A stretch of 64,000 nt of DNA from the NCBI GenBank assembly GCA_024613925.1, contig GCA_024613925.1_4713.1. The stretch is one strand, 5' to 3'. Positions 730-44,075 of the stretch are shown here, piece after piece. The stretch comes from a phage. The position numbers and the translations under genes were made by a program. The notes beneath the pieces are model-generated. The model did not search any database, was not told the DNA's origin, and was given only the letters and a program-made list of their open reading frames with translations. Each line of letters opens with the position of its first letter. The stretch's first letter is position 1.

Positions 730-1089
730 TTGCTGTTAGCGCGTAAAGGCGACGGCGGCATGAAACTGAACATCGAAATGGGTATTGCGTACGATACCAT
801 GTTTGGTTTGTACGACCGCGTTAACGAATGGACACCGTTGAAATGGGTGGCTCAGCATCCCGCTGAAGATCCCTGGGACAGATTAGGGATTAAACCCTTA
901 ATCGAGGATTATGTTCGATTCGGTATTAAAGAGTTCATGACGCTGGATGCGTTTTTAAAAGCACCGTATCCTTACGCGCAAACGGTACTCAAAATCGCAC
1001 AAGACGAACTGCGGAAACGTAGTGCGGTACTGGACGACGATGAGGACAAGTTACGACGAGAAGAAGAACGTTTACGAAACGGAAAATAA
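730..1089 (+). CDS. hypothetical protein; possibly the -1 frameshift extension of the upstream ORF rather than an independent gene
   Basis: Frame open from 556; first in-frame start is TTG at 730 with no ATG until M at ~760; TAA at 1087-1089. Confidence 0.4.
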   Translation: MLLARKGDGGMKLNIEMGIAYDTMFGLYDRVNEWTPLKWVAQHPAEDPWDRLGIKPLIEDYVRFGIKEFMTLDAFLKAPYPYAQTVLKIAQDELRKRSAVLDDDEDKLRREEERLRNGK

Positions 1090-1090
1090 A

Positions 1091-1600
1091 ATGGCGAGAT
1101 TTACCAGTTTGATTGGGTTGGATATTTGGGAAACACCGGCTGACGTTCGGGTTATTCCTGTCAACACCGTCGGTGTGATGGGACGCGGTCTTGCCAAGCA
1201 GGCGGCCGATCGTGTACCCGGTCTTCTTGAAGCGTACCGTAAGCAATGTCAAGATGGGTTTAAGGTGGGCGAAGTCGTGTCATATCAGCATGGCGAGAAC
1301 GATCAGCTCACCTACGTGTTGTTTCCATCAAAATCGGATTGGCGCGAAAAAACACGACGTGAGTATATCGTTAATGGTTTACTGGCGTTAAAAGCGTGGT
1401 TATTGGAGCTTCAGTTCGAAAGAGACGGCTTCTCATACCACCGTCCGGCTGAACCGTTGATTGTCGCAATTCCTCCGGTTGGTTCTGGTTGCGGTAATAT
1501 CGGTTACGGACAATCCGAAACAATCCAGCCTCAATGGGTACGCGCACAAATCAAACAGTATCTTGCCACCGTGCCAAACGTTCATTTCTACTTGTTCTAA
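1091..1600 (+). CDS. macro domain protein (ADP-ribose binding/hydrolase fold)
   Basis: Motifs VIPVNTVGVMGRGLAKQ and PPVGSGCGNIGY resemble macrodomain Gly-rich signatures; ATG at 1091 one nt after upstream stop. Confidence 0.55.
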   Translation: MARFTSLIGLDIWETPADVRVIPVNTVGVMGRGLAKQAADRVPGLLEAYRKQCQDGFKVGEVVSYQHGENDQLTYVLFPSKSDWREKTRREYIVNGLLALKAWLLELQFERDGFSYHRPAEPLIVAIPPVGSGCGNIGYGQSETIQPQWVRAQIKQYLATVPNVHFYLF

Positions 1601-1616
1601 TGCAACGGTAACATAA

Positions 1617-1648
1617 CCCTCTCCCTTCCCTTACGGGTTGGGAGAGGG
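1617..1648. terminator. GC-rich hairpin between convergent genes (ccctctccc...gggagaggg), followed by CTTATGCTG
   Basis: 9-bp perfect stem with inner ccc/ggg pairing, read from sequence. Confidence 0.55.
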
Positions 1649-1665
1649 CTTATGCTGTTATGTTA

Positions 1666-2040
1666 TTAATGTTCGTTCCAGATGGCATCTTCCGGTGGAA
1701 CAATAGGATCTTTCTTCGGCATTGATGGCACTTCATGACGATGTTTACGGAACTGCCTATCAATAACCTCACGAAGCCGGTACGCGTCAACCCATGTTGA
1801 TTTATTGAACAGCTCCAACGTCACGGTTAATCGTGTTCTTGACATTGAATAGCTTTTCTTTGCAATCAAATTGGGATAATTCAGTTGAGCGAACCACGCA
1901 CGTATCTGTGCTTCGGTAAAAGCGATGCTGTAATAACTAAGTTTACCGTCATTAAAATCGTGCGCGTGGGTGTAGCGTCCAGCGTAACGCCAGACAAGAT
2001 GCACATTCAGATCGATCCATGGTGGGGTGGTATCAGCCAT
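1666..2040 (-). CDS. hypothetical protein
   Basis: 124-aa ORF, start abuts upstream gene stop. Confidence 0.5.
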   Translation of the reverse strand: MADTTPPWIDLNVHLVWRYAGRYTHAHDFNDGKLSYYSIAFTEAQIRAWFAQLNYPNLIAKKSYSMSRTRLTVTLELFNKSTWVDAYRLREVIDRQFRKHRHEVPSMPKKDPIVPPEDAIWNEH

Positions 2041-2049
2041 GTGTTACCC

Positions 2050-2619
2050 TCAACGATTCTTCATCACTTTACCCAGGCTTTCGATATTATCCCAAAAGCG
2101 ATTTTTACTTGGCGCATCGCCAACGATAACCGACATCAAATCGCGACGTTCACGACTGATGATGCCCTGTGATTTCCAGATCACCATCGTCCAGCAAGCT
2201 GCCAGAACGAACAGATGGTTAATGCTCGGTTTGGTTTGCGCGATGAACGCAAGCCATGCCCAGATACCGGTATATACTAGCGTCACTAAAAAGAGGGAGA
2301 TTGTCGCAATGACAACAACGAAGTTTTGGACAGCGGGTTGATTCGCGTTATCATGAATAGCGGTAAGATCGGGAAGGTTACCTTCAACTGAACTCGTTTC
2401 ATCGATTTCCAATTCTTCGATTTCTTTTCGTGTGTCGGGAGCTAATCCGGCATCATCAAGATGCTTTTTTAACCGCTGTATACTTAATCGTTGACCGACA
2501 GGAATGTTGATGTTGTCGTAACTATTAAGCGCATCAACCAGGGAGCGCCCGTCAACGAGAACCAAGCTCGCAGTACCCATTGTCTGCGGTTTTATTTTGT
2601 AAAGGTCTTTTACTTTCAT
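2050..2619 (-). CDS. membrane protein (C-terminal hydrophobic helices)
   Basis: 189-aa ORF; hydrophobic stretches FVVVIATISLFLVTLVYTGIWAWLAFI. Confidence 0.5.
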   Translation of the reverse strand: MKVKDLYKIKPQTMGTASLVLVDGRSLVDALNSYDNINIPVGQRLSIQRLKKHLDDAGLAPDTRKEIEELEIDETSSVEGNLPDLTAIHDNANQPAVQNFVVVIATISLFLVTLVYTGIWAWLAFIAQTKPSINHLFVLAACWTMVIWKSQGIISRERRDLMSVIVGDAPSKNRFWDNIESLGKVMKNR

Positions 2620-2640
2620 GTAGACACCACCTCCAACGTG

Positions 2641-5253
2641 TTAAGCGTCTGGTGTAAAATCAAAAGGAATGTCCGTACGAATGACATCATAGCGTTTTCC
2701 GAGGAAATAAAACTCTTCGGGAACCTGACCGGGAATAATGCTATCGCCGATGAACTGCGGATACGCCCAGATGTACTGAGTGAGTCCTTCGAACATATCC
2801 AGGTTATTTGCGTGGTTGCCCATGATACGTTTCCAGAGTTCGCGTTTATACGGTGTTTTAACATCGAACCCATAAAGCGGTGCAAGATCTTCACCAGGAA
2901 CAAATCCCAGGTAATAGTGAATCTGACTAACCGGGAAACCAAGCGTATCTCGCGGAATGGTGATCGCTTGCTCTGCCTTGGTGACATGCGTCTCAATAAT
3001 CCAGTCGTAACACTCCGAATAGAACCGATCGAATTTCTCTGGATTATACCACGCTTTGGGAAGATTCAGTTTCTCCGTGAACGCGTTCGACATGATCGTC
3101 GGCAAGAACGGAAGAATACCGGTTTTGATCTGCGTGTATTTCGATTTTACCCGGTTAACCAAATTCCAGCAACTGTATCCTAACTGTTCGTTACAAAACT
3201 CAACGTAGAGATCGTAGTCACCGCCGGATAATGGGTTGTTGATGTCACCGATGTCTGCGGCATATTTGTTGGGATATCGGTTATTGAAAGCCAGTTTGGT
3301 CTGGTAGTCGTAGATACACGGTTTGTTGTTCGCTGTATTGATCCACCACCAAGGTTCACCTACCTGCACACAAATGTCCTGGACATGAGGGTAGATGATA
3401 TCAGCGAATGCCGTTAACACATCCCCTAACCACGCCATCGCCTGTTGGTTACATGGAGACAGCAACCAAGATGGTGGCGTATATCCGGTTGCTGCGATGT
3501 TTCCTTCCCAATCCTGCTGCGCCCACTCGAACGGGCATGCGGTACTCATCAATTCGTAACTTAAACTGATGGTGACAGAGAAATGGTGTTTTGCAGCATA
3601 TGCGGCGAAAGCTTCATGCCACGCAATACAGGCCGGATTTAATACATCCGTGGTGTTTACCAGTAACTTACCTGCACTTGGCGTCCAGACAGTATCGTAG
3701 AAATGCGACATGCCAACATAATGCACTAATTCATCTTGATATCCCGCATAAACCAGGTTCTCAAATACGCGCTCCGGCGTGATGTTGTAATGGTCATCAT
3801 AAGCAGTTATCGCACGAAGTTCGTGTGGTGTACAGTGGTGGCGACTAACCGTCATTTCCTGATACACCCCATCGATAGGAAGAATCTCGAGGGTTAAGCC
3901 GAGGTCGATTGGCGTTTCCAGATAGGTCGTTTCAGTCGCACCTTCCTTATAATGTCGAGAACTCATGCTGAACATCAACGACGCTACCGATTCGAGTTCG
4001 ATAGGCTCGTCAGCATAGAACCCCGCCATTGCGTCATTGAAATCGATCGTCACGATTGCGCTTCTACCGTCTTCAGAGACATCGGTCGCATATCGGGTTA
4101 ATGAGATATACTGACGGCTATCGTCTTTGTGTACGACGGTTAAAACCGGCGGGTGTTCGGTATCTGCAAAGTTACGCTGGTCGCCAGTAAACGTGACCTT
4201 CGCTTTAAAGATCAAACCGAGTAACGATGTCATGGGATCATACGCAATACTGCCGTGATCCAGCGTATCCGTTGTCCGCCATTCTATCCCGACCAACCCG
4301 TTAGCGGTATGGCATCGCATATACGCATTAAGTGTCATGTCCTCACTGACAACCGCGAAGTTCTCTGTTGACTGACCGTTGATAATCCAATACATCGGTT
4401 GCCAGAGGTTACGCGTACCTTTTGCGTAGTGGTAGGTTGGTGCGCCTTTGGGATTGCCATTATTAAGATGAAATACAGCAGTACCTTGATAATGGTCGTT
4501 CGTATTAATCGGAACACTGTAAGCATCACCGAGGTCCGTACGTTCGACCTTCGTGACTGTTGCGTTTTCAAACAACCCACGTAACGCCGGTAAACCGATA
4601 TCTTCAGGTGCGTTTTCTCGACGAATCGCATCCGCGATGCGGTGGGCTAAGGCGGGGTAAATGGCATCACCCTGTTGTAGGTTTGCAAGACCTACAAAGC
4701 GATCGGGGTCGATGCCAGCAATCAATAACTCAACATCACCCTTCGTTCTATCGTTGTGAAGATATTTCAGTCCAGTAAGATCGAGGTGCTGAATAAGCGA
4801 CAACAGGTTGTATTTACGGTTTTCAACAGTTAGTACAAGATCGCCTGCCCAAACCAAACTTCCCTCATCCGCTGTTACTTTAACGGATTGTCGGCCTGTG
4901 GTAGACGTTGTTGTCGTTTTATTTAATTGTCCTTGTAGGAAGTCGGTTGCGAGGTCAAAGGCAATGCCGTAACGGTCAGCGACCGCTTGCATGATTTCAC
5001 GTAACTGGGTATCTTCTTCAATGATAATCTTGACAGGTATTCCCAAGAACGCTTTAGCGAGGTCTCGTTTAACCAACGAGACGAATACGGATTTGTAGTA
5101 TCGACTTCCATCTTTCCCTTTAAAAAGAATGGAGGTTGTTTCGGGTGACGATAGAATACGCGCAAATTCAACATCGTCGAAAGTAAGAGAAAGTCCGTTT
5201 TTCTCGTTGACCAATCTTAGTATTTCATTTTGCGCGGTTTCATGTAACTTCAT
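2641..5253 (-). CDS. tail fibre / tailspike-like receptor-binding protein with shared N-terminal adapter module (paralog A)
   Basis: 870 aa; N-terminal ~160 aa homologous to ORFs 10445..10993, 11128..12957, 52953..54410 (motifs RDLAKAFLGIPVK, DRYGIAFD). Confidence 0.6.
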   Translation of the reverse strand: MKLHETAQNEILRLVNEKNGLSLTFDDVEFARILSSPETTSILFKGKDGSRYYKSVFVSLVKRDLAKAFLGIPVKIIIEEDTQLREIMQAVADRYGIAFDLATDFLQGQLNKTTTTSTTGRQSVKVTADEGSLVWAGDLVLTVENRKYNLLSLIQHLDLTGLKYLHNDRTKGDVELLIAGIDPDRFVGLANLQQGDAIYPALAHRIADAIRRENAPEDIGLPALRGLFENATVTKVERTDLGDAYSVPINTNDHYQGTAVFHLNNGNPKGAPTYHYAKGTRNLWQPMYWIINGQSTENFAVVSEDMTLNAYMRCHTANGLVGIEWRTTDTLDHGSIAYDPMTSLLGLIFKAKVTFTGDQRNFADTEHPPVLTVVHKDDSRQYISLTRYATDVSEDGRSAIVTIDFNDAMAGFYADEPIELESVASLMFSMSSRHYKEGATETTYLETPIDLGLTLEILPIDGVYQEMTVSRHHCTPHELRAITAYDDHYNITPERVFENLVYAGYQDELVHYVGMSHFYDTVWTPSAGKLLVNTTDVLNPACIAWHEAFAAYAAKHHFSVTISLSYELMSTACPFEWAQQDWEGNIAATGYTPPSWLLSPCNQQAMAWLGDVLTAFADIIYPHVQDICVQVGEPWWWINTANNKPCIYDYQTKLAFNNRYPNKYAADIGDINNPLSGGDYDLYVEFCNEQLGYSCWNLVNRVKSKYTQIKTGILPFLPTIMSNAFTEKLNLPKAWYNPEKFDRFYSECYDWIIETHVTKAEQAITIPRDTLGFPVSQIHYYLGFVPGEDLAPLYGFDVKTPYKRELWKRIMGNHANNLDMFEGLTQYIWAYPQFIGDSIIPGQVPEEFYFLGKRYDVIRTDIPFDFTPDA

Positions 5254-5275
5254 TAAAAACCTCAGCCCTTTAGAA

Positions 5276-5917
5276 TTAAATGTACTGCTTACCGCCCACG
5301 AAGGAAGTTAACCAGTTACCCGAAACAAGCTGCGAAGCCCAGCCAGGCACTGCCCTACCATTCTGGCTCATGATGTTACCACACCAACCAGGGAATCCGG
5401 GACGGATGTAATAGAAAGTTAAATTGTAGAGATGGCAATTCCATACCGCAACGTTATGTTTACCAGAAACCGCTTTAAAGACAAACGCAACGGGTAAAGG
5501 CGACGATAACAATTCAGTCACAGGAACAGCTGACCAGTTCGCATTCGCGTTCCACGGCTGCCATGTGTGTTTGCGCGAGTCACAGTTAACGTTACCGTTG
5601 TTACCGCGCCCACCCGCATGCCACCATAGCGACGGACTCATGTTCTTAAGTGAGGTAAATTGCTGCGGTGGAATATTAGGAATGATAACAGGGTTGGTAC
5701 CTTGTCCGTGTTTCTTTTCTTTTGCGTTTACATACCCACTTATCGATTCGAGGTATTTGACACCAGGATAATTGTTCTGGACTTGTGTCGCAATATCACG
5801 AACGTCGAACGTCCAGCAGATCATGGTGTTGTAGTAAGCGTCGGTGTTATCGTGCCATGAGTTACCATCTTGTAAACGTGCGCCGCTATTCGGTGTTTTA
5901 TCTGTACTTATAGCCAT
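5276..5917 (-). CDS. hypothetical protein (Trp/Asn/Gly-rich), in fibre module
   Basis: 213-aa ORF between lipoprotein gene and paralog A. Confidence 0.5.
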   Translation of the reverse strand: MAISTDKTPNSGARLQDGNSWHDNTDAYYNTMICWTFDVRDIATQVQNNYPGVKYLESISGYVNAKEKKHGQGTNPVIIPNIPPQQFTSLKNMSPSLWWHAGGRGNNGNVNCDSRKHTWQPWNANANWSAVPVTELLSSPLPVAFVFKAVSGKHNVAVWNCHLYNLTFYYIRPGFPGWCGNIMSQNGRAVPGWASQLVSGNWLTSFVGGKQYI

Positions 5918-6056
5918 GGTCTTGTCCTATACGTTGGTGGTTGAAATGGCGGATATCGGATGCATGCTGGACGTGAACCCTATAATTCGCGCTATCGCCA
6001 TTTTCTACCTCGTTTCTATTCTCAAAAAGGAAATTTCATACGATGACGCCATAGCA

Positions 6057-6086
6057 GCTCCTCCTTCCCTGACGGGTTGGAGGAGC
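6057..6086 (-). terminator. GC-rich hairpin (gctcctcc...ggaggagc) downstream of lipoprotein gene
   Basis: 8-bp stem plus inner ccc/ggg; core ttccctNacgggttgg shared with hairpin at 1617. Confidence 0.5.
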
Positions 6087-6094
6087 ATACTTAA

Positions 6095-6601
6095 TTACTT
6101 ACTGATAACCTCAACGGAATCCGGGTCGGCGATCAGCGCACGATCGGTAGAACAATTGAAGAAGACCATACCAACACCATCACCGTTCGAGTTCAGGGTT
6201 GAACTTGCGTAAGACAGGGTTGGTTTATTCATGCGGTAGAAGCGTTCGCTGGTTGTGGTATTGAACCCCAGATCAACGTAGTCTTTCACCGTGGTGTACA
6301 ACTGTGTGGACTCGAAAACGGTTACCGGAGAGTCAACGGTAAACTGACTGCCTTCATCCACAACCAGAACTTTATCGTTCCAGATTTCAGTGGTTGAGAA
6401 CTTCGGTTTCCAATGTTCGAATTCCTGGGTTGCACCCCAGCAAGAATACACAGCGAGATTGCTGTTCTTCTCGACAGGTTTCAACCCCACCAGTTGTGTC
6501 AGGTCTTTATCCAGGTTCGGTAAACCTTCCAGCGTAGCACACCCACCCAGAGAAAGCACCATCAACATACCAAGAACGATCGTGCAAAGTTTCTTCATCA
6601 T
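6095..6601 (-). CDS. lipoprotein (signal peptide with lipobox LSLGGC)
   Basis: N-terminus MMKKLCTIVLGMLMVLSLGGCATLEG. Confidence 0.6.
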   Translation of the reverse strand: MMKKLCTIVLGMLMVLSLGGCATLEGLPNLDKDLTQLVGLKPVEKNSNLAVYSCWGATQEFEHWKPKFSTTEIWNDKVLVVDEGSQFTVDSPVTVFESTQLYTTVKDYVDLGFNTTTSERFYRMNKPTLSYASSTLNSNGDGVGMVFFNCSTDRALIADPDSVEVISK

Positions 6602-6641
6602 CGGATTTCCTTATGTGTAACGGGAGTGATCTCCATAGTAA

Positions 6642-7226
6642 TTACACAGTTGTAGGAAATTCCGGCCAATCGATATTTGGTGCTGTTGATGTGTCAACGC
6701 GATGCAGAGCCACCCGATACTTTTTCCATGCCGTCAACATGGACACCTCTTCTTCCGTTGCGATCTCCAGATCCACAGCATCCTGAAGTGGCGTAATATG
6801 ATCATTCGCCGCCTTCATCAGACTGTTTTTTGTTTCTTCCGCCTCCCGGATCCGGAACAGTTTTTCTGCTTCCGTATCCTTCACCCAGGCTGTGCCGTCC
6901 CACTTCTGAAACTCCCCTTCCGGCGATAACCAGGTAACATTTTCCGGTAACGGACCGAGTTCAGAAATAAATAACGCGTCGCCGGAAGCCACGTCATAAA
7001 CCGTTTTACCCCGATGATCTTCAACGAGATGCCACGATTCATTTTCATTGTTAAAAACTGCCACAAAACCAGCAGGAATTTCCGGTGGGGCGATATCTGT
7101 AGAATTAGCTGGCAGACCTGTATGAGGCGGAATATATGCATCACCTTCACCAATAAATTCATTAGTTCCGGCCAGCAGATTATAAATTTTTATGGTCCGT
7201 GGTTGTTCACTCATTCTGAATGCCAT
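6642..7226 (-). CDS. tail fibre assembly protein (Tfa-type chaperone)
   Basis: C-terminal region [45 protein letters not shown] typical of lambda/P2-type Tfa; start ATG overlaps fibre stop (TAATG). Confidence 0.8.
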
Positions 7227-10200
7227 TATGCAAGCCTCACGATGTAGTTAAATGCAATGTTTTTGACGGTGTTTTCCGCGTTACCCGTAGCGTTAACGGT
7301 GATGGTGTGTCCATGTGATCCAATCGCAACCGAGTGCGTATGCGCACCAATACCTACAGTATGTGCATGTGCGCCAGAACTTGCTGCAGTACCAGACAGC
7401 GAGTGGGTATGTGCTCCATCTGATGATGTCTTCCCTGATATACGGGTCATACCTGAGCCACCTTCCAGTGGTACAATTGGTGCTTTGACTGAAACCTGGG
7501 TATAACCGTTAGGAAAGAGTGCACCATTATTAGAATTCGTATATGGTCCAGAACTCCGGTGTTGGTGCCCACCTGCACTATTTGCAGTCCCGCTCACACT
7601 GTGTGTATGTGCCCCGGTGTTATTCGTGGATTTAGTGCCGTAATCAAACGACGATGTGGTTTTCGTCCCCAAATCCGTATTGGATGCGCTGGCGCTATGG
7701 TTGTGCGATTTTATGCCGTCCTGTTCCTGAGACAATACGGCACGACCACTGGCAGGTTTGCCCTTAATCGTCCAGCCACGCATATCAGGAATAACGCCTG
7801 ACGGATAAGCCACTGCAAGTTTCGGGTATACAGATTTGTCAAAAGTCTGCCCTTGCATCAGAGCATAACCAGACGGAACGGTATCTGAAGGCCATGGAAT
7901 AGGCGCGCCAACAGGCAACTCCGGAGGTGCGGTAAACTCACCCAACTCCTTTATTGCCTCAATAAGTAGAGCTATTTGGGCAGAGATAGAGACCGTTAAA
8001 ACGTCCTCACCATTAGCGTCTTTATAAGTAGAAACTGCTTCAGGTAACACTTTTTGTAAGGTTTGTGCTACAACGCCAACCTCACGATGAACATTAGTGG
8101 ATTTAAAGTTCTCCTTTTTGTCGTATATTAAACCTGACAATTTCTTTACCTTCTCCAATGCATTAGTTATTGGAGAGAAATTACTTTTCAGCCGGGCGTC
8201 TGATCGTGTATAAACTTCGTTAAAGTTACCGTTCCCATCACAATCTATATTTCCAGTAACGTTGAGAGGTACATAGCTTTGAACAGCCTCTCTCGTAAAG
8301 CGTAAAACGTGGTCATAATCGGCGTAAACATCTAGAACGCCGTCCCCGTTCTGCTTAAAGCCGGTGTCATCATCCCCTAAAGCTATGGAGTTCTCACCTA
8401 AATGATTCTCGGTTCCAATACCCAGATTATCGCTTAAAATACTATCAATAGCAAATATTGAATGAGAACAATAAAACCCTCGTCCATTGTTAAAATCCAA
8501 AATGGTTTGTGCGTTCGTGCTTTCTGTCGCGGGATTAGTTGCTCCCCACTTATAGGTTGTTTGACCGACGGTATAATTCTTGGTCGGAACACTAACCGAT
8601 AACCCTTCTTCGGCAAAAACTTGAATAGGGAAAGCCCTACCTTCGACGTAAAAAACGCTGCACACATCATCATCTTCCGCACCTGTTACAATGGAATGGA
8701 TTGCGCGCTCATCAGTATCATATATCGAAAAATACCCTGCTGCGTATGAACCACGATCAGTCCAACCGCCCGGCATTACCGTTCCATTGAATTCGCAGTT
8801 ATTCATTGCATAATCACCACTGGCAGATGTGGTTGTAATAACCACTCTGGAAGCCAGTTCGCCAGTGCTACCAGTGGAACGCCGGAAAATAACTGGATAC
8901 CACTTTCCGCCAACGGCTTTAGACGGCGCGTTAAATACGTACTGCCGCATTCCTTTTTTCTTATCCACCTCGTCTTTGCTGTAAACATTAATGTTACTCA
9001 GGAAGCGACCCTTATCAGGAATATCTGCGCCGTTAGAACTGCGTTGCATAGCGCCCGCAGCTTTATCAACAGTGGTTTTCAAACCCAGGAAGTTAATGAT
9101 ATCGGCCGTCGACCCTTTCGCTAACAAATCACGCGCAGTCGAGGTGAAATCCGCTAACCCTACCTGATTACTACCGGTAAAATAAGGGAGTTTATTCGCT
9201 TCTGTTGTTAGGTTAGACCACGCCGTGAGCAGCGCGTTCAAAGGTTGTTTACCCGCCAACGTATTGGTTATTGTCGTTGCGAAATTAGGATCGTTCCCTA
9301 AAGCTTGAGCCAGCTCATTAAGCGTATTTAGCGCTTCTGGAGACGAGTCGATCAGTGATGCGATAGCACGCATCACAAATTCCGTGTTGGCAATCTGTCG
9401 ACTGCTATCGTTCTCTGCAGCCGTAGGCGCTGCCGGGATACCGGTGAACACAGGGCTATTAAGATCTGCCTTGAGAGCGATGAGACGTTTAAGTGCGTCG
9501 ACATCGACTTTCAGGTTTTCCCATCCGATGAGAGAACCACCACTGCTGGCATGGTAACGGTTGTACCAGAAGTCACCGTTAACGCCTAAAAAGAATATTC
9601 CCTTCTCTTCGTTTTGTGGGCCGGAACTATTTCGTGACGAGCTGATGTAATTGATTTCAATGAGGCCGTTAAACGTCACTCCCGGGATGATTTTGTTGTC
9701 TCCAGCCGACTGTGATACCTGGTAAATCCCCGGGGTTGCGGCTTTGACCCATGTTAAGAATTCTGTTACTCCAGCGGTACCGCTGAAATTCTTAACGTCG
9801 GTAAGTATTGCCCCATAACCGAACATACCGGGTAGAGCCACTCGTCCGTTGGTGCGGTCACGAATATCTGTTGCAACAACAGGCAATTGTTTACGAACGG
9901 CATTAACCGCTTTAGGCGTGGCCGATTTTGTCTCGTCGTCGCTATCGGTTTCATTACTTAGAATAGTTAAACCGCGCGTAGCAGTCGTTGCATCAGGAAG
10001 AAATGCGTTATCCAACACCTTAAGCTGTATTGCACTCGTATTACTAACAACGACATGCACCTGACAGTTAAGAACGCTGGTTGCGCCTTCGGTAGGCGTA
10101 GGCTTATATCTTTCTGGCGCACTGCAGACGGCAATCAGAACACCTTGGTCATCATACAAACCGATCTCACGTACCCAGAACCCACCTTGACCAGCAGGAA

Positions 10201-10438
10201 TAATACCCTCAACGATAATCCTGGTTGTGCTGTCACCATCCGCATGGATATTAGAAACTTCCCCACGATAAACTTCGTGAACAAGCGCTGTTTGGCTGGC
10301 GTTCGGGGTTGGGATCGAGCCGTTACCATCACCAACGGCAAAGTGTGTGATTTTTAGTTTCTCACCGTCGGGAAGTAACGCAGCGGTGATACGTTCTGCT
10401 CCTTTATCGGTAACTACCGTTATATATGCTGTACTCAT
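7226..10438 (-). CDS. long tail fibre protein with C-terminal His-x-His repeat tip
   Basis: 1070 aa; repeats [38 protein letters not shown]; Gly/Ser/Thr-rich; followed by Tfa gene. Confidence 0.8.
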
Positions 10439-10444
10439 GGTGTT

Positions 10445-10993
10445 TTATCCTGGATAAATAGTGATGATATCACCAATGACGGTTGTGGCACCGGCGTAAA
10501 GATGAGCCGGGGATACATCGTGTTGGTTTGTCACAGTAAGATCCAATCGACCACGCCAAACCATGGAGGTATTCGCGATGGGGATAGAGATCTTTTTGGA
10601 TATATCGTCACGAAAATCAATAACAGTGGCAAGGGTAACTGCATCAAAATCGACGTCGGGGTCAAAGACGAACCCGTATCGATCTGAAATCGCCCGAATA
10701 ATCGCATGTATAGTTGTTGTCTCAACGGACTCTAAAACGATTTTTACCGGTATTCCTAAAAATGCCTTCGCGATATCGCGTCGAGCGTAAACGATAAAAC
10801 TTTCACCGCACCACTTTGTTCCTTCATTTGCTGTGACGATCACTTTTGCCCTGTTAGCACCAGAACTCCCATCCAATGTTAATGTAAGATCGGAGCTGCT
10901 GAACACGCTACCGTTACGTTGGTTTATCAACGTAATCAGTTCGTCTTTCCATGGCGGGTAAAGTGAACGCATAAGCGCACCCTCCTCCAACAA
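10445..10993 (-). CDS. stand-alone N-terminal adapter module protein (paralog B) immediately upstream of long fibre gene
   Basis: 182 aa, homologous only to the N-terminal module of paralogs A/C/E (RRDIAKAFLGIPVKIV, SDRYGFVFD); stop 6 nt before fibre ATG. Confidence 0.55.
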   Translation of the reverse strand: MLEEGALMRSLYPPWKDELITLINQRNGSVFSSSDLTLTLDGSSGANRAKVIVTANEGTKWCGESFIVYARRDIAKAFLGIPVKIVLESVETTTIHAIIRAISDRYGFVFDPDVDFDAVTLATVIDFRDDISKKISIPIANTSMVWRGRLDLTVTNQHDVSPAHLYAGATTVIGDIITIYPG

Positions 10994-11127
10994 TCAAATT
11001 AAATTGTAAACGCCTCGAGACCGGAGTGCGATTCGAGGTAAACGTAAACAGTCCAGACGACCGCATAAAATTCCGCGCATATTGCCCCTCTATCCCGACA
11101 AAGCGAGATAGAGGGAGGATAATACTT

Positions 11128-12957
11128 TTATGCTGCTACGTATCCCGGCCAACGTTCTCTTGGCCAGTTTGTTGCGCCCTGCCCAACGTTGTCCTTACCA
11201 GAAATTACATTACTTACGTCCCAACCGCTAAGGTCTTGGTTAAATGCGGTGTTATCGCGCATCATGAGATCGATCTCACGTAGTGACTGGGTATTCCAGC
11301 CGGAAATGTCTTGGTTAAATGCTTTATTGGAGGCAAACATGTTAGTCACGTTCTGTAATTTTGATGTGTTCCAACCACCGATATCACTATTGAACGACGT
11401 GTCCGAGAACATGCCTGCGGCGTTAATGAGGCTGTCTGTTTTCCAGTTAATCAGCTTGTCACCATCGAGCGCCCTGCAACCACCGAACATAAAACTCATA
11501 TCGTTAACTTTGGATACATTCCATTTATCTAACCCGTTACCAACGAACGCGTAACAAGACTGGAACATCCAGCTCATATCGGTAACCCGACTCACATTCC
11601 ATTTACTGAAGTCGAGGTTAAGTTTCTGACACCCTAAGAAGGTTTCACACATACTGGTGATACGACTAACATCCCACTCTTGGATGTTGGGGTCGTTAAG
11701 CGTCGTTAAATAGTTGAACAATTTGTCTAACGACGTCCATTTCTCTGGGATACGGTTTGGTACTGTATGAAGCGATGAAAGGTTATTGGTTGATGGAGAG
11801 CGGAACATGCCGTTATCCCAATTTACGATCTCCGTAATTTCGTACCCTCTGATCGTCTGAGTAGCGTAACCATCTTTCACCGTACCTGTAGCGACGATGG
11901 TATATTCACCAGTGTCCGCATAATCGTGGACGTAGGCATTGTTGCTGGCGGTCTCCGTCGTCTTAGTCCCATCACCCCAATCGATATTGACGTTATCCCA
12001 CCCACCTAGTTTGAACTGTACTTTGCCTCCGGTGGCTTTTAGGATGTATTTACCCCCATTGTCTGTATAATAACAGACAACCATTGGACCGTACAGATTA
12101 CCTATCTGCCAATCATCCTTTTGCGTTATTGCGATTTGCGCCGCACCACGCTGTACGAAGAGTACCGTACGATTCTCGGCAGTCTGTAATGTGGTTATTG
12201 CCTGAGCCTTATCGTCCTCGCTAATTTCACCAGACACCACTAAAGCGCTTAACATCCTTTCGAAGTATTCGATCGGTAACTCAGCTCCAACAGACTTATC
12301 AACAGACTGTACAGCAAGATCACCCAATGCTGCAGTGGTAGCCAATGCCAATGAACCCTTGGTCATATCTGTTTCTTGGATGTAATGCAGTCCCGTAAGC
12401 TGGTACGCTTGAATAATAGTAATCAGGTTCAGCGTATCGTTAACGACCTGTACTTGTAAATACCCGGACCACACATAGCTGTCTTCGGCAATTAGTAGAT
12501 CGACTGACTGAATACCTGATGTTTCAAAGGTGATCTTCTCATTAAGATCGGTTTCCAGGAAATCAACCGCGAGGTCGAAATTAATGCCGTACTTTTCAGC
12601 GATGGAATCTACGATATTTCTTAAAGTAACATCTGTGCTTACGATAAAACGTAACGGAATTCCTGTAAACGCTTTAGCAATGTCTCGACGAACATACGTA
12701 AGCGATTGTTCGAAGAAATACGGGCTGTTATCTCCAGGCTTGATGGTTACCTGGCACACTTCAGGATATTCGGCTGGGATGAACGATTCGAATTTAACAT
12801 CGGATTCTTTCAACGAAAGATTGTTATTCCGGTTCACTAACGCCAGAAGATCGGCTTTCCATCCGGGGTAAACTGTAGACATAAGCACTCCAAAGTTCAT
12901 GGGGCGGTAACCGCCCCGTTGGTTAAATTGTTGGTTTAATATCGCGTAATAGGGCAA
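11128..12957 (-). CDS. receptor-binding protein: N-terminal adapter module plus C-terminal BspA-like leucine-rich repeats (paralog C)
   Basis: Repeats WNVSRVTDMSWMFQSC, WNVSKVNDMSFMFGGC, GWNTSKLQNVTNMFAS, SGWNTQSL, SGWDVSNV; true start probably downstream near MSTVYPGWK. Confidence 0.65.
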   Translation of the reverse strand: MPYYAILNQQFNQRGGYRPMNFGVLMSTVYPGWKADLLALVNRNNNLSLKESDVKFESFIPAEYPEVCQVTIKPGDNSPYFFEQSLTYVRRDIAKAFTGIPLRFIVSTDVTLRNIVDSIAEKYGINFDLAVDFLETDLNEKITFETSGIQSVDLLIAEDSYVWSGYLQVQVVNDTLNLITIIQAYQLTGLHYIQETDMTKGSLALATTAALGDLAVQSVDKSVGAELPIEYFERMLSALVVSGEISEDDKAQAITTLQTAENRTVLFVQRGAAQIAITQKDDWQIGNLYGPMVVCYYTDNGGKYILKATGGKVQFKLGGWDNVNIDWGDGTKTTETASNNAYVHDYADTGEYTIVATGTVKDGYATQTIRGYEITEIVNWDNGMFRSPSTNNLSSLHTVPNRIPEKWTSLDKLFNYLTTLNDPNIQEWDVSRITSMCETFLGCQKLNLDFSKWNVSRVTDMSWMFQSCYAFVGNGLDKWNVSKVNDMSFMFGGCRALDGDKLINWKTDSLINAAGMFSDTSFNSDIGGWNTSKLQNVTNMFASNKAFNQDISGWNTQSLREIDLMMRDNTAFNQDLSGWDVSNVISGKDNVGQGATNWPRERWPGYVAA

Positions 12958-19817: not shown

Positions 19818-20315
19818 TTACGTGTGTCGTCGTTTACCAAAGAAAATGTGGCTGTCTACCACGGTGATATTGGTAGCATGTTTTCTGAAATGTTTAGGGC
19901 GAAGATGTTTCGTGTTAAAGAATACGGCTCCTCGTGTTGGGTCGGCTTTATGGTAAGCCGCAATGTCAGTATAACGTAATGTTGCGACCTCTCGTGCTAT
20001 TGCTCTTGCTCGCTCAAAAGCAGCATGATCGCGTATGATAATACGCCTTTGTTTTGTCCAGGGGAATTGACCTCTTTGCAGTACGACGTCTTTGACGTTC
20101 GTAGGGAATCGGTAGTCCATAGATCGATTATGTATTAAAAACGCCACGGAGTATTGCCCTTTTACAGATTCGCCTCTGGCTTCCATATACACGGCGCATG
20201 CGACGATCTCTTTCCGGCAATCGATTCTAGGTCCTGCGTTCACTGATGCTTGACTGAACGGTGTGATAAGCAACATAACAAGCCCTAAAATCAACGTGTG
20301 TAAAATACCTTGCAT
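19818..20315 (-). CDS. SleB-like cell wall hydrolase with N-terminal signal peptide (candidate lysis enzyme)
   Basis: Motif CAVYMEARGE typical of SleB/Hydrolase_2 family; signal peptide ending SQA; SD GAGGT. Confidence 0.6.
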   Translation of the reverse strand: MQGILHTLILGLVMLLITPFSQASVNAGPRIDCRKEIVACAVYMEARGESVKGQYSVAFLIHNRSMDYRFPTNVKDVVLQRGQFPWTKQRRIIIRDHAAFERARAIAREVATLRYTDIAAYHKADPTRGAVFFNTKHLRPKHFRKHATNITVVDSHIFFGKRRHT

Positions 20316-39341: not shown

Positions 39342-39617
39342 TTAATCCTCCATGAGTTCCTTTATTTCTTTTACGATCTGTGTAATACGCGACGGTGTAA
39401 AGCCGTACCGTTTAGCTATTTCCTTATTGCTCGTGCCATTTAAATGGTCGCGATATATCATTGCACGATTTAGTATTTTGATATCGTCAGAAAGTTCTAA
39501 TAGTCTAGCGACCTCACGATCGTCAAGTTTGTTTTTCGTGTTTAAGCTATGTTCTATTACGCTTAACTCAGCCTTACAACTCTTGATAAAATCACCAACG
39601 GTGGTAATAACTTGCAT
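39342..39617 (-). CDS. small HTH DNA-binding protein
   Basis: HLNGTSNKEIAKRYGFTPSRITQIVKEIK resembles sigma-70 region-4 / LuxR-type HTH; SD AGGTGA. Confidence 0.5.
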   Translation of the reverse strand: MQVITTVGDFIKSCKAELSVIEHSLNTKNKLDDREVARLLELSDDIKILNRAMIYRDHLNGTSNKEIAKRYGFTPSRITQIVKEIKELMED

Positions 39618-39636
39618 AAATCACCTATTTCCGTGT

Positions 39637-39660
39637 TGCGGGTGGATGCGCCCACCCGCA
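39637..39660 (-). terminator. hairpin tgcgggtgg atgcgc ccacccgca downstream of thyA-like gene
   Basis: 9-bp perfect stem. Confidence 0.55.
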
Positions 39661-42737: not shown

Positions 42738-44063
42738 TCACTTCAGTAGCTTAGACGTCGCCATGCTTCGCGCTAACGCAACGTCATACGCATCCATGAT
42801 TGCGTCACCGATAGCGGTATGACGGATCAGCGGAATACCCATGTCTGGATACTCTTTGGTGCCTAAGATGGATACCGGTTTGTCTTGATACGCAGCAATC
42901 ATCGAACGAATATCCTGAACCTGGTTATAACGACAAACTGGCTTAAAGCCCGCTTTACGGAACCAATGCTCTAATTGAGGCCAATCTGTTTCACCGCGAG
43001 CAAGATAATAGAAGGTATCTTTACCGTAGTATTCGGTCATTTTGTCACGAATACTGTTGACGAACGCATTTACTTCGGCGATGGCTTCTTTATAACCCAT
43101 TGCCTTACAATGTTGAAAACAATAGTCGCGCGCTTCCTTTGGTGCTTTGGTTTGCCACCATTCTACTGTTGATTCACTGATACGACCACCGTCAGCGATT
43201 TGACCATGAACGTCAGGGAAGATATCTATACGCGGACCGTTAACAATGGATTCTGGATTAGCCAGATCGAAGAACACGATACCGATTTCCAGCAATACTC
43301 CATTCTTTTCCAGACTAAGGTTTTCAACATCTAAACAAAATGCAGGCTTCTCTACCGCTAACGGCTCGAACGAATGGTTGCTGGTATCCGATTCGGTTTT
43401 AAGTTCGACGACAACCGGATCGGTATCCGTAGGTTTCAGTTCTACTACAGCATCATCGAGTCCCGATAATGAAAAATAGTCTTCGAAGAAATCGGGTATC
43501 GTCATACCATGCAAATTGATATCGCAATCTTCCAACCATTGCTTCAACTGGTGCTCACCGGCATGAATCGCTAAACGGCATGGTCCGGAACGATCATCTA
43601 GCGCTGCATCGATCCAGAAGAAAGCACGTATAAGTAAGTAAGGATTATACTCCGCGATGATTTCTTGGCTAGCCGAGAAATCGTACACCATTAGTTGTAT
43701 TATTCCCTTACGTGTGTTATACGGATCAACTTTCAATCGACGCACTATTTCTTCTACGAATTCCAGCGCACGCGTGTACGATGTGGACCCACCTTGTTCA
43801 TACGAACATATACCCGTCAAAAGTTCCTTATAGGACGCATATGGAACCATAGGCGATAATTTGTACGACAGTTCAGTATTGTAATTATCGCATAATTTCT
43901 TCGGGGCGATAGCATCCTGTATCGCTGTAATAAACGCCGGTCCATCAATATCAAACAACCATCCTTGACGCCGGTATGCAGTGTATCGTAATAACGCACC
44001 GATAACTGCCTGGGGCGGTGTATATTCTTTCCCGTTAATTTCAAACAGTAGTTTGCTCATCAT
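42738..44063 (-). CDS. protein with C-terminal DEDDh-type 3'-5' exonuclease domain and unknown N-terminal domain
   Basis: FCLDVENLS (Exo I D-x-E) and HTAIGDAIMDA (Exo III H-x-A-x-x-D-A). Confidence 0.5.
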   Translation of the reverse strand: MMSKLLFEINGKEYTPPQAVIGALLRYTAYRRQGWLFDIDGPAFITAIQDAIAPKKLCDNYNTELSYKLSPMVPYASYKELLTGICSYEQGGSTSYTRALEFVEEIVRRLKVDPYNTRKGIIQLMVYDFSASQEIIAEYNPYLLIRAFFWIDAALDDRSGPCRLAIHAGEHQLKQWLEDCDINLHGMTIPDFFEDYFSLSGLDDAVVELKPTDTDPVVVELKTESDTSNHSFEPLAVEKPAFCLDVENLSLEKNGVLLEIGIVFFDLANPESIVNGPRIDIFPDVHGQIADGGRISESTVEWWQTKAPKEARDYCFQHCKAMGYKEAIAEVNAFVNSIRDKMTEYYGKDTFYYLARGETDWPQLEHWFRKAGFKPVCRYNQVQDIRSMIAAYQDKPVSILGTKEYPDMGIPLIRHTAIGDAIMDAYDVALARSMATSKLLK

Positions 44064-44075
44064 AACACCTTTTCA

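Follow-up and report, generated by a model that had tools for sequence, protein, structure and literature searches.

Probable recombinational replacement of the distal tail fibre and its Tfa chaperone in a Goslar-type jumbo phage, next to a native lipoprotein gene

The 64,000-nucleotide stretch of phage DNA analysed here (GenBank assembly GCA_024613925.1, contig GCA_024613925.1_4713.1; hereafter, the window) carries at 6095-10438 a long tail fibre gene, a gene for a Tfa chaperone, and a lipoprotein gene. An earlier sequence-only reading had described a His-x-His-repeat fibre followed by these two genes and proposed that the three form one acquired host-range cassette. The open reading frame (ORF) list confirms three real minus-strand genes at the coordinates given below, and their domains, seven H-x-H motifs, and lipobox bear out the earlier description of the genes. 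The cassette has other boundaries. Our analysis indicates that the window very probably represents a relative of Escherichia phage vB_EcoM_Goslar whose long tail fibre locus (gp090-gp089) had its distal, receptor-determining part replaced by recombination, next to a lipoprotein gene that is native. The features of the locus are as follows.

7226-10438, minus strand: long tail fibre gene; 1070 aa, homologue of Goslar gp090, a four-part mosaic (modules A to D)
9174-10438, minus strand: module A, fibre aa 1-421; native Goslar-type N-terminal part with the baseplate-attachment domain
9035-9173, minus strand: right-hand recombination zone, fibre aa 422-468, with the 'NDPNFATT...LPYFTG' motif
8425-9034, minus strand: module B, aa 469-672; globular shaft domain common in E. 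coli prophage fibres
7942-8424, minus strand: module C, aa 672-833; T2/S16-type gp37 stem plus Peptidase_S74 intramolecular chaperone
7916-7941, minus strand: C/D joint, where the chaperone's last 8 codons give way to GEFTAPPEL, in frame to the start of the collar
7226-7915, minus strand: module D, aa 842-1070; lambda-Stf/T4-gp37 collar plus His-x-His needle tip, the predicted receptor-binding end
6642-7226, minus strand: Tfa chaperone gene; 194 aa, lambda/Qin-type, Caudo_TAP
6095-6601, minus strand: predicted outer-membrane lipoprotein gene; 168 aa, orthologue of Goslar gp088

The exchanged segment and its sources

The window is a close relative of Goslar (NC_048170), a 237-kb nucleus-forming jumbo phage. 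Megablast returned 95.6% identity with 83% of the window's first 25 kb covered, and local blastn yielded collinear blocks at 95-96% nucleotide identity over most of the 64 kb, interrupted by a few indels. By nucleotide identity and collinearity, this 64-kb window fits the genus Goslarvirus (Chimalliviridae). The genes flanking the fibre locus encode the Goslar DUF7941 proteins gp86, gp91, and gp92.

Blastn placed the backbone and the exchanged DNA precisely. Goslar-like sequence at 96% nucleotide identity occupies 769-6683 and 9174-11139, and the 2490 bp between them (6684-9173) stand where Goslar has 3084 bp. The native side includes fibre aa 1-421, the last 14 codons of tfa, and everything downstream, including the lipoprotein gene. 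At the left edge, lambdoid matches start at 6664 and Goslar identity stops at 6683, so that the alignment sets the crossover at 6664-6683, within those last 14 tfa codons, which are Goslar-type: lambda-type tfa sequence runs up to a short shared stretch (...GCACC) and is Goslar-like from there through the stop codon and the intergenic region. The 3' end of tfa is conserved, and a join placed there leaves the incoming Tfa with the portion of its sequence that moves together with its cognate tip. At the right edge, near-identity to Goslar stops at 9174 and prophage-like sequence is found from 9034. The intervening zone holds the 'NDPNFATT...LPYFTG' junction motif, which is common to the fibres of P2, Mu, lambda, and Goslar; fibre aa 390-452 share 52% aa identity with aa 1-63 of lambda Stf (C-terminal ORF). 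The region of this motif is a classical fibre recombination point. The true exchanged module is therefore 6684-9173, rather than 6095-10438.

The C-terminal end of the fibre and the Tfa have the clearest provenance. The last 232 residues (aa 839-1070) match the solved T4 gp37 needle (2XGF; E=1.1e-81), with a Collar domain (PF07484; E=9e-11) at aa 844-891 and seven H-x-H motifs at aa 912, 944, 958, 1010, 1024, 1033, and 1042 that are putatively metal-binding, as in T4 gp37. An 11-residue sequence at the fibre C-terminus is identical in lambda, StfQ, and T4. Sequence comparison bore out the earlier suggestion that the Tfa is close to E. coli cryptic-prophage proteins: the tip is 91.3% identical in aa to the StfQ C-terminus of E. 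coli MB53, variable sub-domain included (63% to lambda Stf), and the aa identity of the Tfa is 87.4% with TfaQ, 86.5% with lambda Tfa, and 31.8% with Goslar gp089. The Tfa is assigned to Caudo_TAP (PF02413; E=8.8e-43) and phrog_105 (E=4e-98). At the nucleotide level, module D plus tfa is 87-92% identical to many lambdoid phages; the best match is the Qin cryptic-prophage locus stfQ(frameshifted)-tfaQ-pinQ of E. coli MB53 (90.2%, 98% of the query), and 3477 of 5426 complete E. coli genomes hold a match covering at least 80%. The tfa ATG overlaps the fibre stop codon (TAATG), as in lambda stf-tfa. In the 'T4- and lambda-based RBP family' of receptor-binding proteins, tip and chaperone form a known mobile receptor-binding unit that includes a cognate chaperone of 184-207 aa encoded downstream (PMC9659904); the 194-aa Tfa, beginning at the fibre stop, corresponds to this description.

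The remainder of the fibre is built from other sources. Its Pfam domains are a Phage_tail_fib N-terminus (aa 1-141), Phage_fiber_2 (151-182), Peptidase_S74 (746-802), and the Collar (844-891). Module A is 96.0-96.3% identical to Goslar in nucleotides, with backbone-typical codon usage and a ratio of nonsynonymous to synonymous substitution rates (dN/dS) of 0.24 versus gp090. A P2-like prophage, e.g., that in E. coli C7, has a tail fibre gene 91% identical in nucleotides to module B, and a lambdoid Stf is 74% identical to it; the P2-like fibre protein matches window fibre aa 453-721 at 80% aa identity. The E. coli replicon p98232-contig_4 (222 kb) encodes a 1541-aa fibre whose C-terminal end module C matches at 90-95% nucleotide identity; module C is also 93% and 92% identical in aa to two predicted proteins, P0001 (Salmonella assembly) and P0002 (sequencing-run assembly). 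It lacks a knob of about 90 aa found in P0001 and P0002. Without this knob, it aligns in one piece with the RB18-type T-even gp37 (53% aa) and matches S16 gp37 (PDB 6F45), and is thus a natural T2/S16-type ending.

Two side observations concern module C. Against the p98232 fibre, the stem at 8246-8437 (aa 668-731) shows 21 non-synonymous and 5 synonymous differences (dN/dS 1.28); together with the P2-like match through aa 721, this points to an extra recombination join or diversifying change inside the module. The nearest sources are the E. coli 98232 'plasmid' p98232-contig_4 (221,873 bp) and the 224,826-bp Salmonella contig that carries P0001. On both of these replicons of about 222-225 kb, a 1541-aa S74-ending fibre is followed by a glycine-rich gp38-like 'receptor-recognizing protein' among mostly hypothetical neighbours. 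Although deposited as a plasmid or contigs, they look like jumbo phage or phage-plasmid genomes.

The earlier suggestion to compare GC content and codon usage had a split outcome. GC content carries no foreign signal (0.463 in the swapped part versus 0.456 in the window), whereas codon usage marks the swapped part as foreign. The distance in relative synonymous codon usage between fibre aa 422-1070 plus tfa and the other window genes is 0.427, against a null of 0.230±0.028 in which 0 of 500 samples reach that value, and GC at third codon positions is 0.410 versus 0.485±0.023. Among the parts tested, tfa is the most atypical; the fibre N-terminus, the lipoprotein gene, and an extra DUF7941 gene described below fall within the null. 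The proposal of horizontal exchange with temperate coliphages thus holds for the C-terminal two-thirds of the fibre and for tfa, and fails for fibre aa 1-421 and the lipoprotein.

An assembly artefact, in which reads from a host prophage or a co-occurring phage were joined to the backbone at short shared motifs, appears scarcely credible. Lambdoid and P2-like donor fibres do reside in most E. coli genomes, and both the exact fibre protein and the C/D joint were found nowhere else. Host contamination, however, would give about 100% identity, whereas the modules are only 87-95% identical to their best matches. All four joins are in frame in a 1070-aa ORF, the TAATG overlap with tfa is kept, and both flanks resume the collinear Goslar backbone. 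The shared sequence, about 20 bp at the left join and none at the C/D joint, is too little to mislead an assembler.

The same slot is occupied differently in Goslar and its relatives, referred to here by our locus labels.

Goslar and L009: glycine-rich tip; 138-aa Caudo_TAP chaperone
L010: different tip; DUF4376 chaperone
L018: 1174-aa fibre with a Gp34_trimer domain; chaperone gene absent
L016: fibre gene absent; Goslar-type Tfa present

The distal fibre and its chaperone are thus best seen as a generally exchangeable slot in the Goslar lineage. L016 (IMGVR_UViG_3300045988_173921) is a Goslar-like 183-kb contig without any tail fibre gene. At 3871-5391, a hybrid 182-aa DUF7941 ORF joins the N-terminus of the window's extra gene to the C-terminus of gp91, and directly after it come the Goslar-type Tfa and the lipoprotein. 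The contig may represent a natural variant that lost the fibre by deletion, or a collapsed assembly.

The internal S74 chaperone and the fate of the tip

What is novel in this fibre is that a needle tip follows an S74 chaperone whose Ser-Lys dyad is intact, an unprecedented join that is in no database searched. The Peptidase_S74 match (PF13884; E=2.7e-15) spans aa 746-802 and profile positions 1-57 of 58. Its dyad, Ser746 (codon 8201-8203) and Lys751 (codon 8186-8188) in the motif SDARLK (i, i+5), agrees with the catalytic S911/K916 of endoNF and with that of MyRF (PMC8326128). S74 domains are typified by a C-terminal location; here, 238 residues follow the end of the chaperone domain at about aa 832. 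The closest homologues, P0001 and P0002, end 8 aa past 'AIKEL'. A search of 5.8 billion proteins recovered no protein spanning the joint, the best matches covering either half, and no database record of the exact fibre protein was found. A degenerate pattern back-translated from the C/D joint went unmatched in IMG/VR, GTDB genomes, and JGI metagenomes. In a fibre-structure atlas, S74 endings and needle endings are alternative termini, and the S74 domain is not seen in assembled fibres (PMC12143355).

Self-cleavage before Ser746, for which we judge the odds roughly even, would detach the needle tip if it proceeds as at fibre C-termini. The tip and Tfa would then be non-functional baggage: the fibre would shed its C-terminal 325 aa and persist as a T2/S16-type stub, and other fibres, such as the DUF7941 proteins, would recognise the host. 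We consider this outcome plausible but somewhat less than evenly likely. In its favour, Ser746, Lys751, and the residues just upstream are intact in a domain 91% identical to C-terminal versions, the internal domain of MyRF still cleaves despite the large region that follows it (PMC8326128), assembled fibres lack S74 domains (PMC12143355), and one relative, L016, has no fibre gene. Listed on the same side is that no gp38-like adhesin gene able to cap a cleaved T2-type stub was found in the window. A discarded tip is harder to reconcile with an in-frame fusion lying exactly at natural domain boundaries and with the lack of decay in tip and tfa (dN/dS 0.17-0.18 versus stfQ/tfaQ). Moreover, the chaperone's C-terminal helix has lost its final 8 residues to other sequence, and phage S74 cleavage requires a properly folded upstream beta-helix (PMC8326128), which is here itself mosaic. 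Another reading, also less likely than not, is that the S74 domain is kept uncleaved as a permanent trimerisation node of the shaft, or cleaves to free a trimeric StfQ-type receptor-binding fragment at lysis.

Neither the fibre gene nor tfa contains a frameshift or premature stop. For module B, the chaperone domain, module D, and tfa, dN/dS against the nearest relatives is 0.17-0.30, a measure that cannot split pre- from post-transfer evolution and gives no readout of tip selection in the window phage; most of the divergence in the swapped parts predates the fusion.

Several observations weigh against replacement of the receptor-determining end. First, Goslar's own tip and chaperone are also codon-atypical relative to the Goslar backbone. 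Neither state is therefore clearly ancestral, and 'replacement' denotes a difference, not a direction. The vast representation of module D and tfa in prophages nonetheless argues for entry into the jumbo phage rather than exit. Second, the best donor identity for any module is only about 91-95%, which means that the transfers were not very recent or that sampling has missed the donors; how many events took place, and in which order, cannot be recovered. Third, with its internal S74 dyad intact, the acquired tip may be cleaved off and have no role on the virion. Fourth, the absence of a fibre gene from L016 hints that the fibre is dispensable in some settings.

Replacement at the gp090-gp089 locus nevertheless remains our preferred explanation. 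The incoming patchwork comprises a P2-like prophage shaft domain, a T2/S16-type S74 stem, and a Qin/lambda needle tip with its tfa. From homology and gene order, we infer that the Tfa is required for folding and trimerising the adjacent tip, presumably starting at the C-terminus, as happens in lambda and T4. The tip may then retarget the fibre to the surface structure bound by StfQ-type tips, and host range would shift relative to Goslar, whose glycine-rich adhesin tip uses a short Caudo_TAP chaperone. Characterised needle-tip relatives bind an outer-membrane protein and/or lipopolysaccharide.

The lipoprotein and neighbouring genes

The sequence-only reading had placed the lipoprotein within the acquired cassette and likened it to T5 Llp, which would mask the receptor of the fibre for superinfection exclusion. 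A single three-gene module of this kind is very improbable, and cassette membership is refuted. The idea had a sound starting point: the lipoprotein gene lies directly after the fibre/chaperone here and in Goslar, L009, L010, L018, and L011, its product has a true lipobox and residues for sorting to the outer membrane, the genes for the lipoproteins Llp and Cor adjoin receptor-binding genes (PMC9586334), and Goslar gp88 is abundant in late-infection material (bioRxiv 10.64898/2026.04.21.720040). The crossover, however, falls upstream of the lipoprotein gene, inside tfa. The lipoprotein gene itself has native codon usage and lies inside the 96% backbone block 769-6683, and its product is 97.6% identical in aa to Goslar gp088 despite the unrelated tips. 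It is equally constant (97-98%) in Goslar-like genomes with other fibre states, including L016 and L018, and 86-98% identical across relatives. Such constancy alongside unrelated tips, or none, means that the lipoprotein does not co-vary with the receptor-binding tip.

The protein has a signal peptide and a lipobox, LGG|C, at Cys21, with Ala at +2. Cys21, Cys54, and Cys150 are invariant in all 14 aligned family members, none of which has Asp at +2. With a dN/dS of 0.06, the gene is under strong purifying selection. Although assigned to phrog_9559, the protein matched nothing in Pfam (E up to 10) or NCBIfam. By tblastn, homologues occur only in about 55 jumbo-phage records of about 197-250 kb from Erwinia, Salmonella, Escherichia, and Proteus, and those of SPN3US and ChrisDB are not beside a fibre gene; the family has no prophage relatives. 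A word-based search of 5.8 billion proteins gave six clusters of this family, and an exhaustive profile search of 1.84 billion representatives gave 15 hits, none from a bacterial lipoprotein family. An AlphaFold2 model from a 12-row alignment (mean per-residue confidence, pLDDT, 76.6) has a beta-barrel-like core; the pLDDT with 7 sequences was 33.6. PDB fold searches with the model retrieved generic small beta-barrels only, so that the fold did not lead to a functional assignment. The protein resembles Llp in neither sequence nor fold, and its mature form (about 147 aa) is far longer than the 61 aa of Llp. The proposed T5 Llp likeness thus finds no backing in sequence, fold, or co-variation with the tip.

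In mass spectrometry of purified Goslar particles, gp88 was among ten unexplained proteins at >200 copies per virion, its lipobox not being remarked, and the preparation also held phage-nucleus and PhuZ material (bioRxiv 10.64898/2026.04.21.720040). That count would favour a true virion component, and the position of the SPN3US homologue gp159, three genes from the endolysin, would favour a lysis (o-spanin-like) protein; we regard either role, in place of an exclusion factor, as unlikely. The window's endolysin gene (19821-20315) is 13 kb from the lipoprotein gene, and a disulphide-containing beta-barrel-like domain of about 147 aa is unlike the short proline-rich o-spanins. An exported, lipidated protein would hardly join virions assembled in the cytoplasm, phage-nucleus and PhuZ material in the Goslar preparation makes co-purifying membrane fragments plausible, and two proteome papers do not mention SPN3US gp159 as a virion protein in their main text. 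On the simplest reading, gp88 in virion preparations may reflect co-purifying outer membrane; the lipobox of its orthologue thus bears on how the Goslar result is read. In our reading, the lipoprotein is an abundant, late, predicted outer-membrane-anchored protein of conserved function, encoded by a conserved backbone gene independent of the fibre tip. It might possibly shield progeny or exclude superinfection via a conserved receptor.

A sigma-70 promoter scan around the lipoprotein gene found none, which says little since Goslar-type phages use their own RNA polymerases, and a terminator scan returned nothing convincing. On the minus strand just past the lipoprotein stop (6041-6077), there is an inverted repeat of 7 bp (CTCCTCC...GGAGGAG) whose arms enclose a long loop; it has no T-run, and the terminator scan did not call it. 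The next ORF, between the lipoprotein gene and the gp86 homologue, is as follows.

5276-5917, minus strand: gp087 orthologue ORF; 213 aa

It matched no Pfam or PHROG family.

On the other side of the fibre gene, 11140-12885 is a 1746-bp insertion relative to Goslar, with a minus-strand ORF (11128-12957) for a 609-aa protein that combines an N-terminal DUF7941 domain with DUF285 (BspA-like) repeats. A 584-aa counterpart is present in the Goslar-like contig L010. Since codon usage there is backbone-typical, Goslar has probably lost this extra DUF7941 gene. DUF7941 proteins are proposed to make up a 'fibre cloud' at the Goslar baseplate (2026 preprint, bioRxiv 10.64898/2026.04.21.720040), to which the extra gene would add a member; the preprint's gene numbering matches RefSeq for Goslar gp86, gp90, gp91, and gp92. 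Elsewhere, the window is without three segments, of 861, 711, and 292 bp, that Goslar has (about 27030, 29860, and 42305 are among the difference sites), and the two genomes further differ by a 299-bp window-only segment (39352-39650) and a replacement of about 700 bp (43358-44070).

Significance and comparison with known systems

Exchange of a fibre tip with its chaperone is the classical route to a new host range, described mainly for temperate and T-even phages. It is now found in a nucleus-forming jumbo phage, a member of a group that shields its DNA in a protein shell, with breakpoints mapped to the base and a donor pool of cryptic prophages present in most E. coli genomes. The locus defines a variable slot between two conserved motifs, and 6684-9173 is a natural template for re-targeting Goslar-type phages by swapping. 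It is also a natural test case of whether an S74 chaperone can work, or must cleave, away from the protein end. If the S74 domain stays uncleaved, one fibre would be folded by two systems, an intramolecular chaperone for the stem and a separate Tfa for the tip. Either S74 outcome, if true, would be an assembly arrangement undescribed for phage fibres, in which S74 and needle endings count as alternatives. The lipoprotein is now set apart from the host-range module.

The lipoprotein resembles T5 Llp and T1/phi80 Cor in being a small exported lipoprotein encoded beside a receptor-binding gene, with a conserved disulphide pair (PMC9586334). It shares no sequence or fold similarity with either and is more than twice the size, the mature Llp having 61 aa (PMC9586334); its family is restricted to jumbo phages and its distant members are not fibre-adjacent, whereas T5 llp co-varies with its receptor-binding protein.

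Goslar gp090-gp089-gp088 has the same position and gene order as the window locus, and fibre aa 1-421, the DUF7941 flanks, and the lipoprotein are 95-98% identical. The 1324-aa Goslar fibre, in contrast, ends in Phage_fiber_2 repeats and a glycine-rich adhesin-like tip, and its 138-aa chaperone is 32% identical to the window Tfa. The L009 fibre has a PF21722 Gly_rich_2 ending in the Goslar-type arrangement.

T2/S16/RB18-type gp37 and T5 pb1 share the stem and an S74 domain with the SDxRxK dyad (53% aa to the RB18 type), and the window S74 stem is 91-93% identical to the fibres of the replicons of about 222 kb. In gp37 of this type and pb1, the S74 domain is C-terminal and is cleaved off; in the window, it sits inside the protein, is 8 residues short at its end, and leads into the needle tip. 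After cleavage, the T2/S16 type is bound by a separate gp38 adhesin, unlike the window, which has no gp38-like gene. In MyRF (PMC8326128), the S74-family domain is likewise internal, with a large downstream polypeptide and a Ser-Lys dyad at i/i+5. MyRF is a eukaryotic membrane transcription factor, a precedent only for internal placement not necessarily stopping self-cleavage.

Finally, lambda Stf-Tfa, Qin StfQ-TfaQ, and T4 gp37 (PMC9659904; 2XGF) share with the window the collar, the seven H-x-H motifs, the C-terminal end, and an overlapping downstream chaperone. Unlike a lambdoid side fibre or T4 gp37, the window unit is carried on the fibre of a nucleus-forming myovirus of about 240 kb and is preceded by an S74 domain. 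The exchange of fibre tip plus chaperone is thus of a known kind (PMC9659904); what is new here is its setting and the join of an S74 chaperone to a needle.

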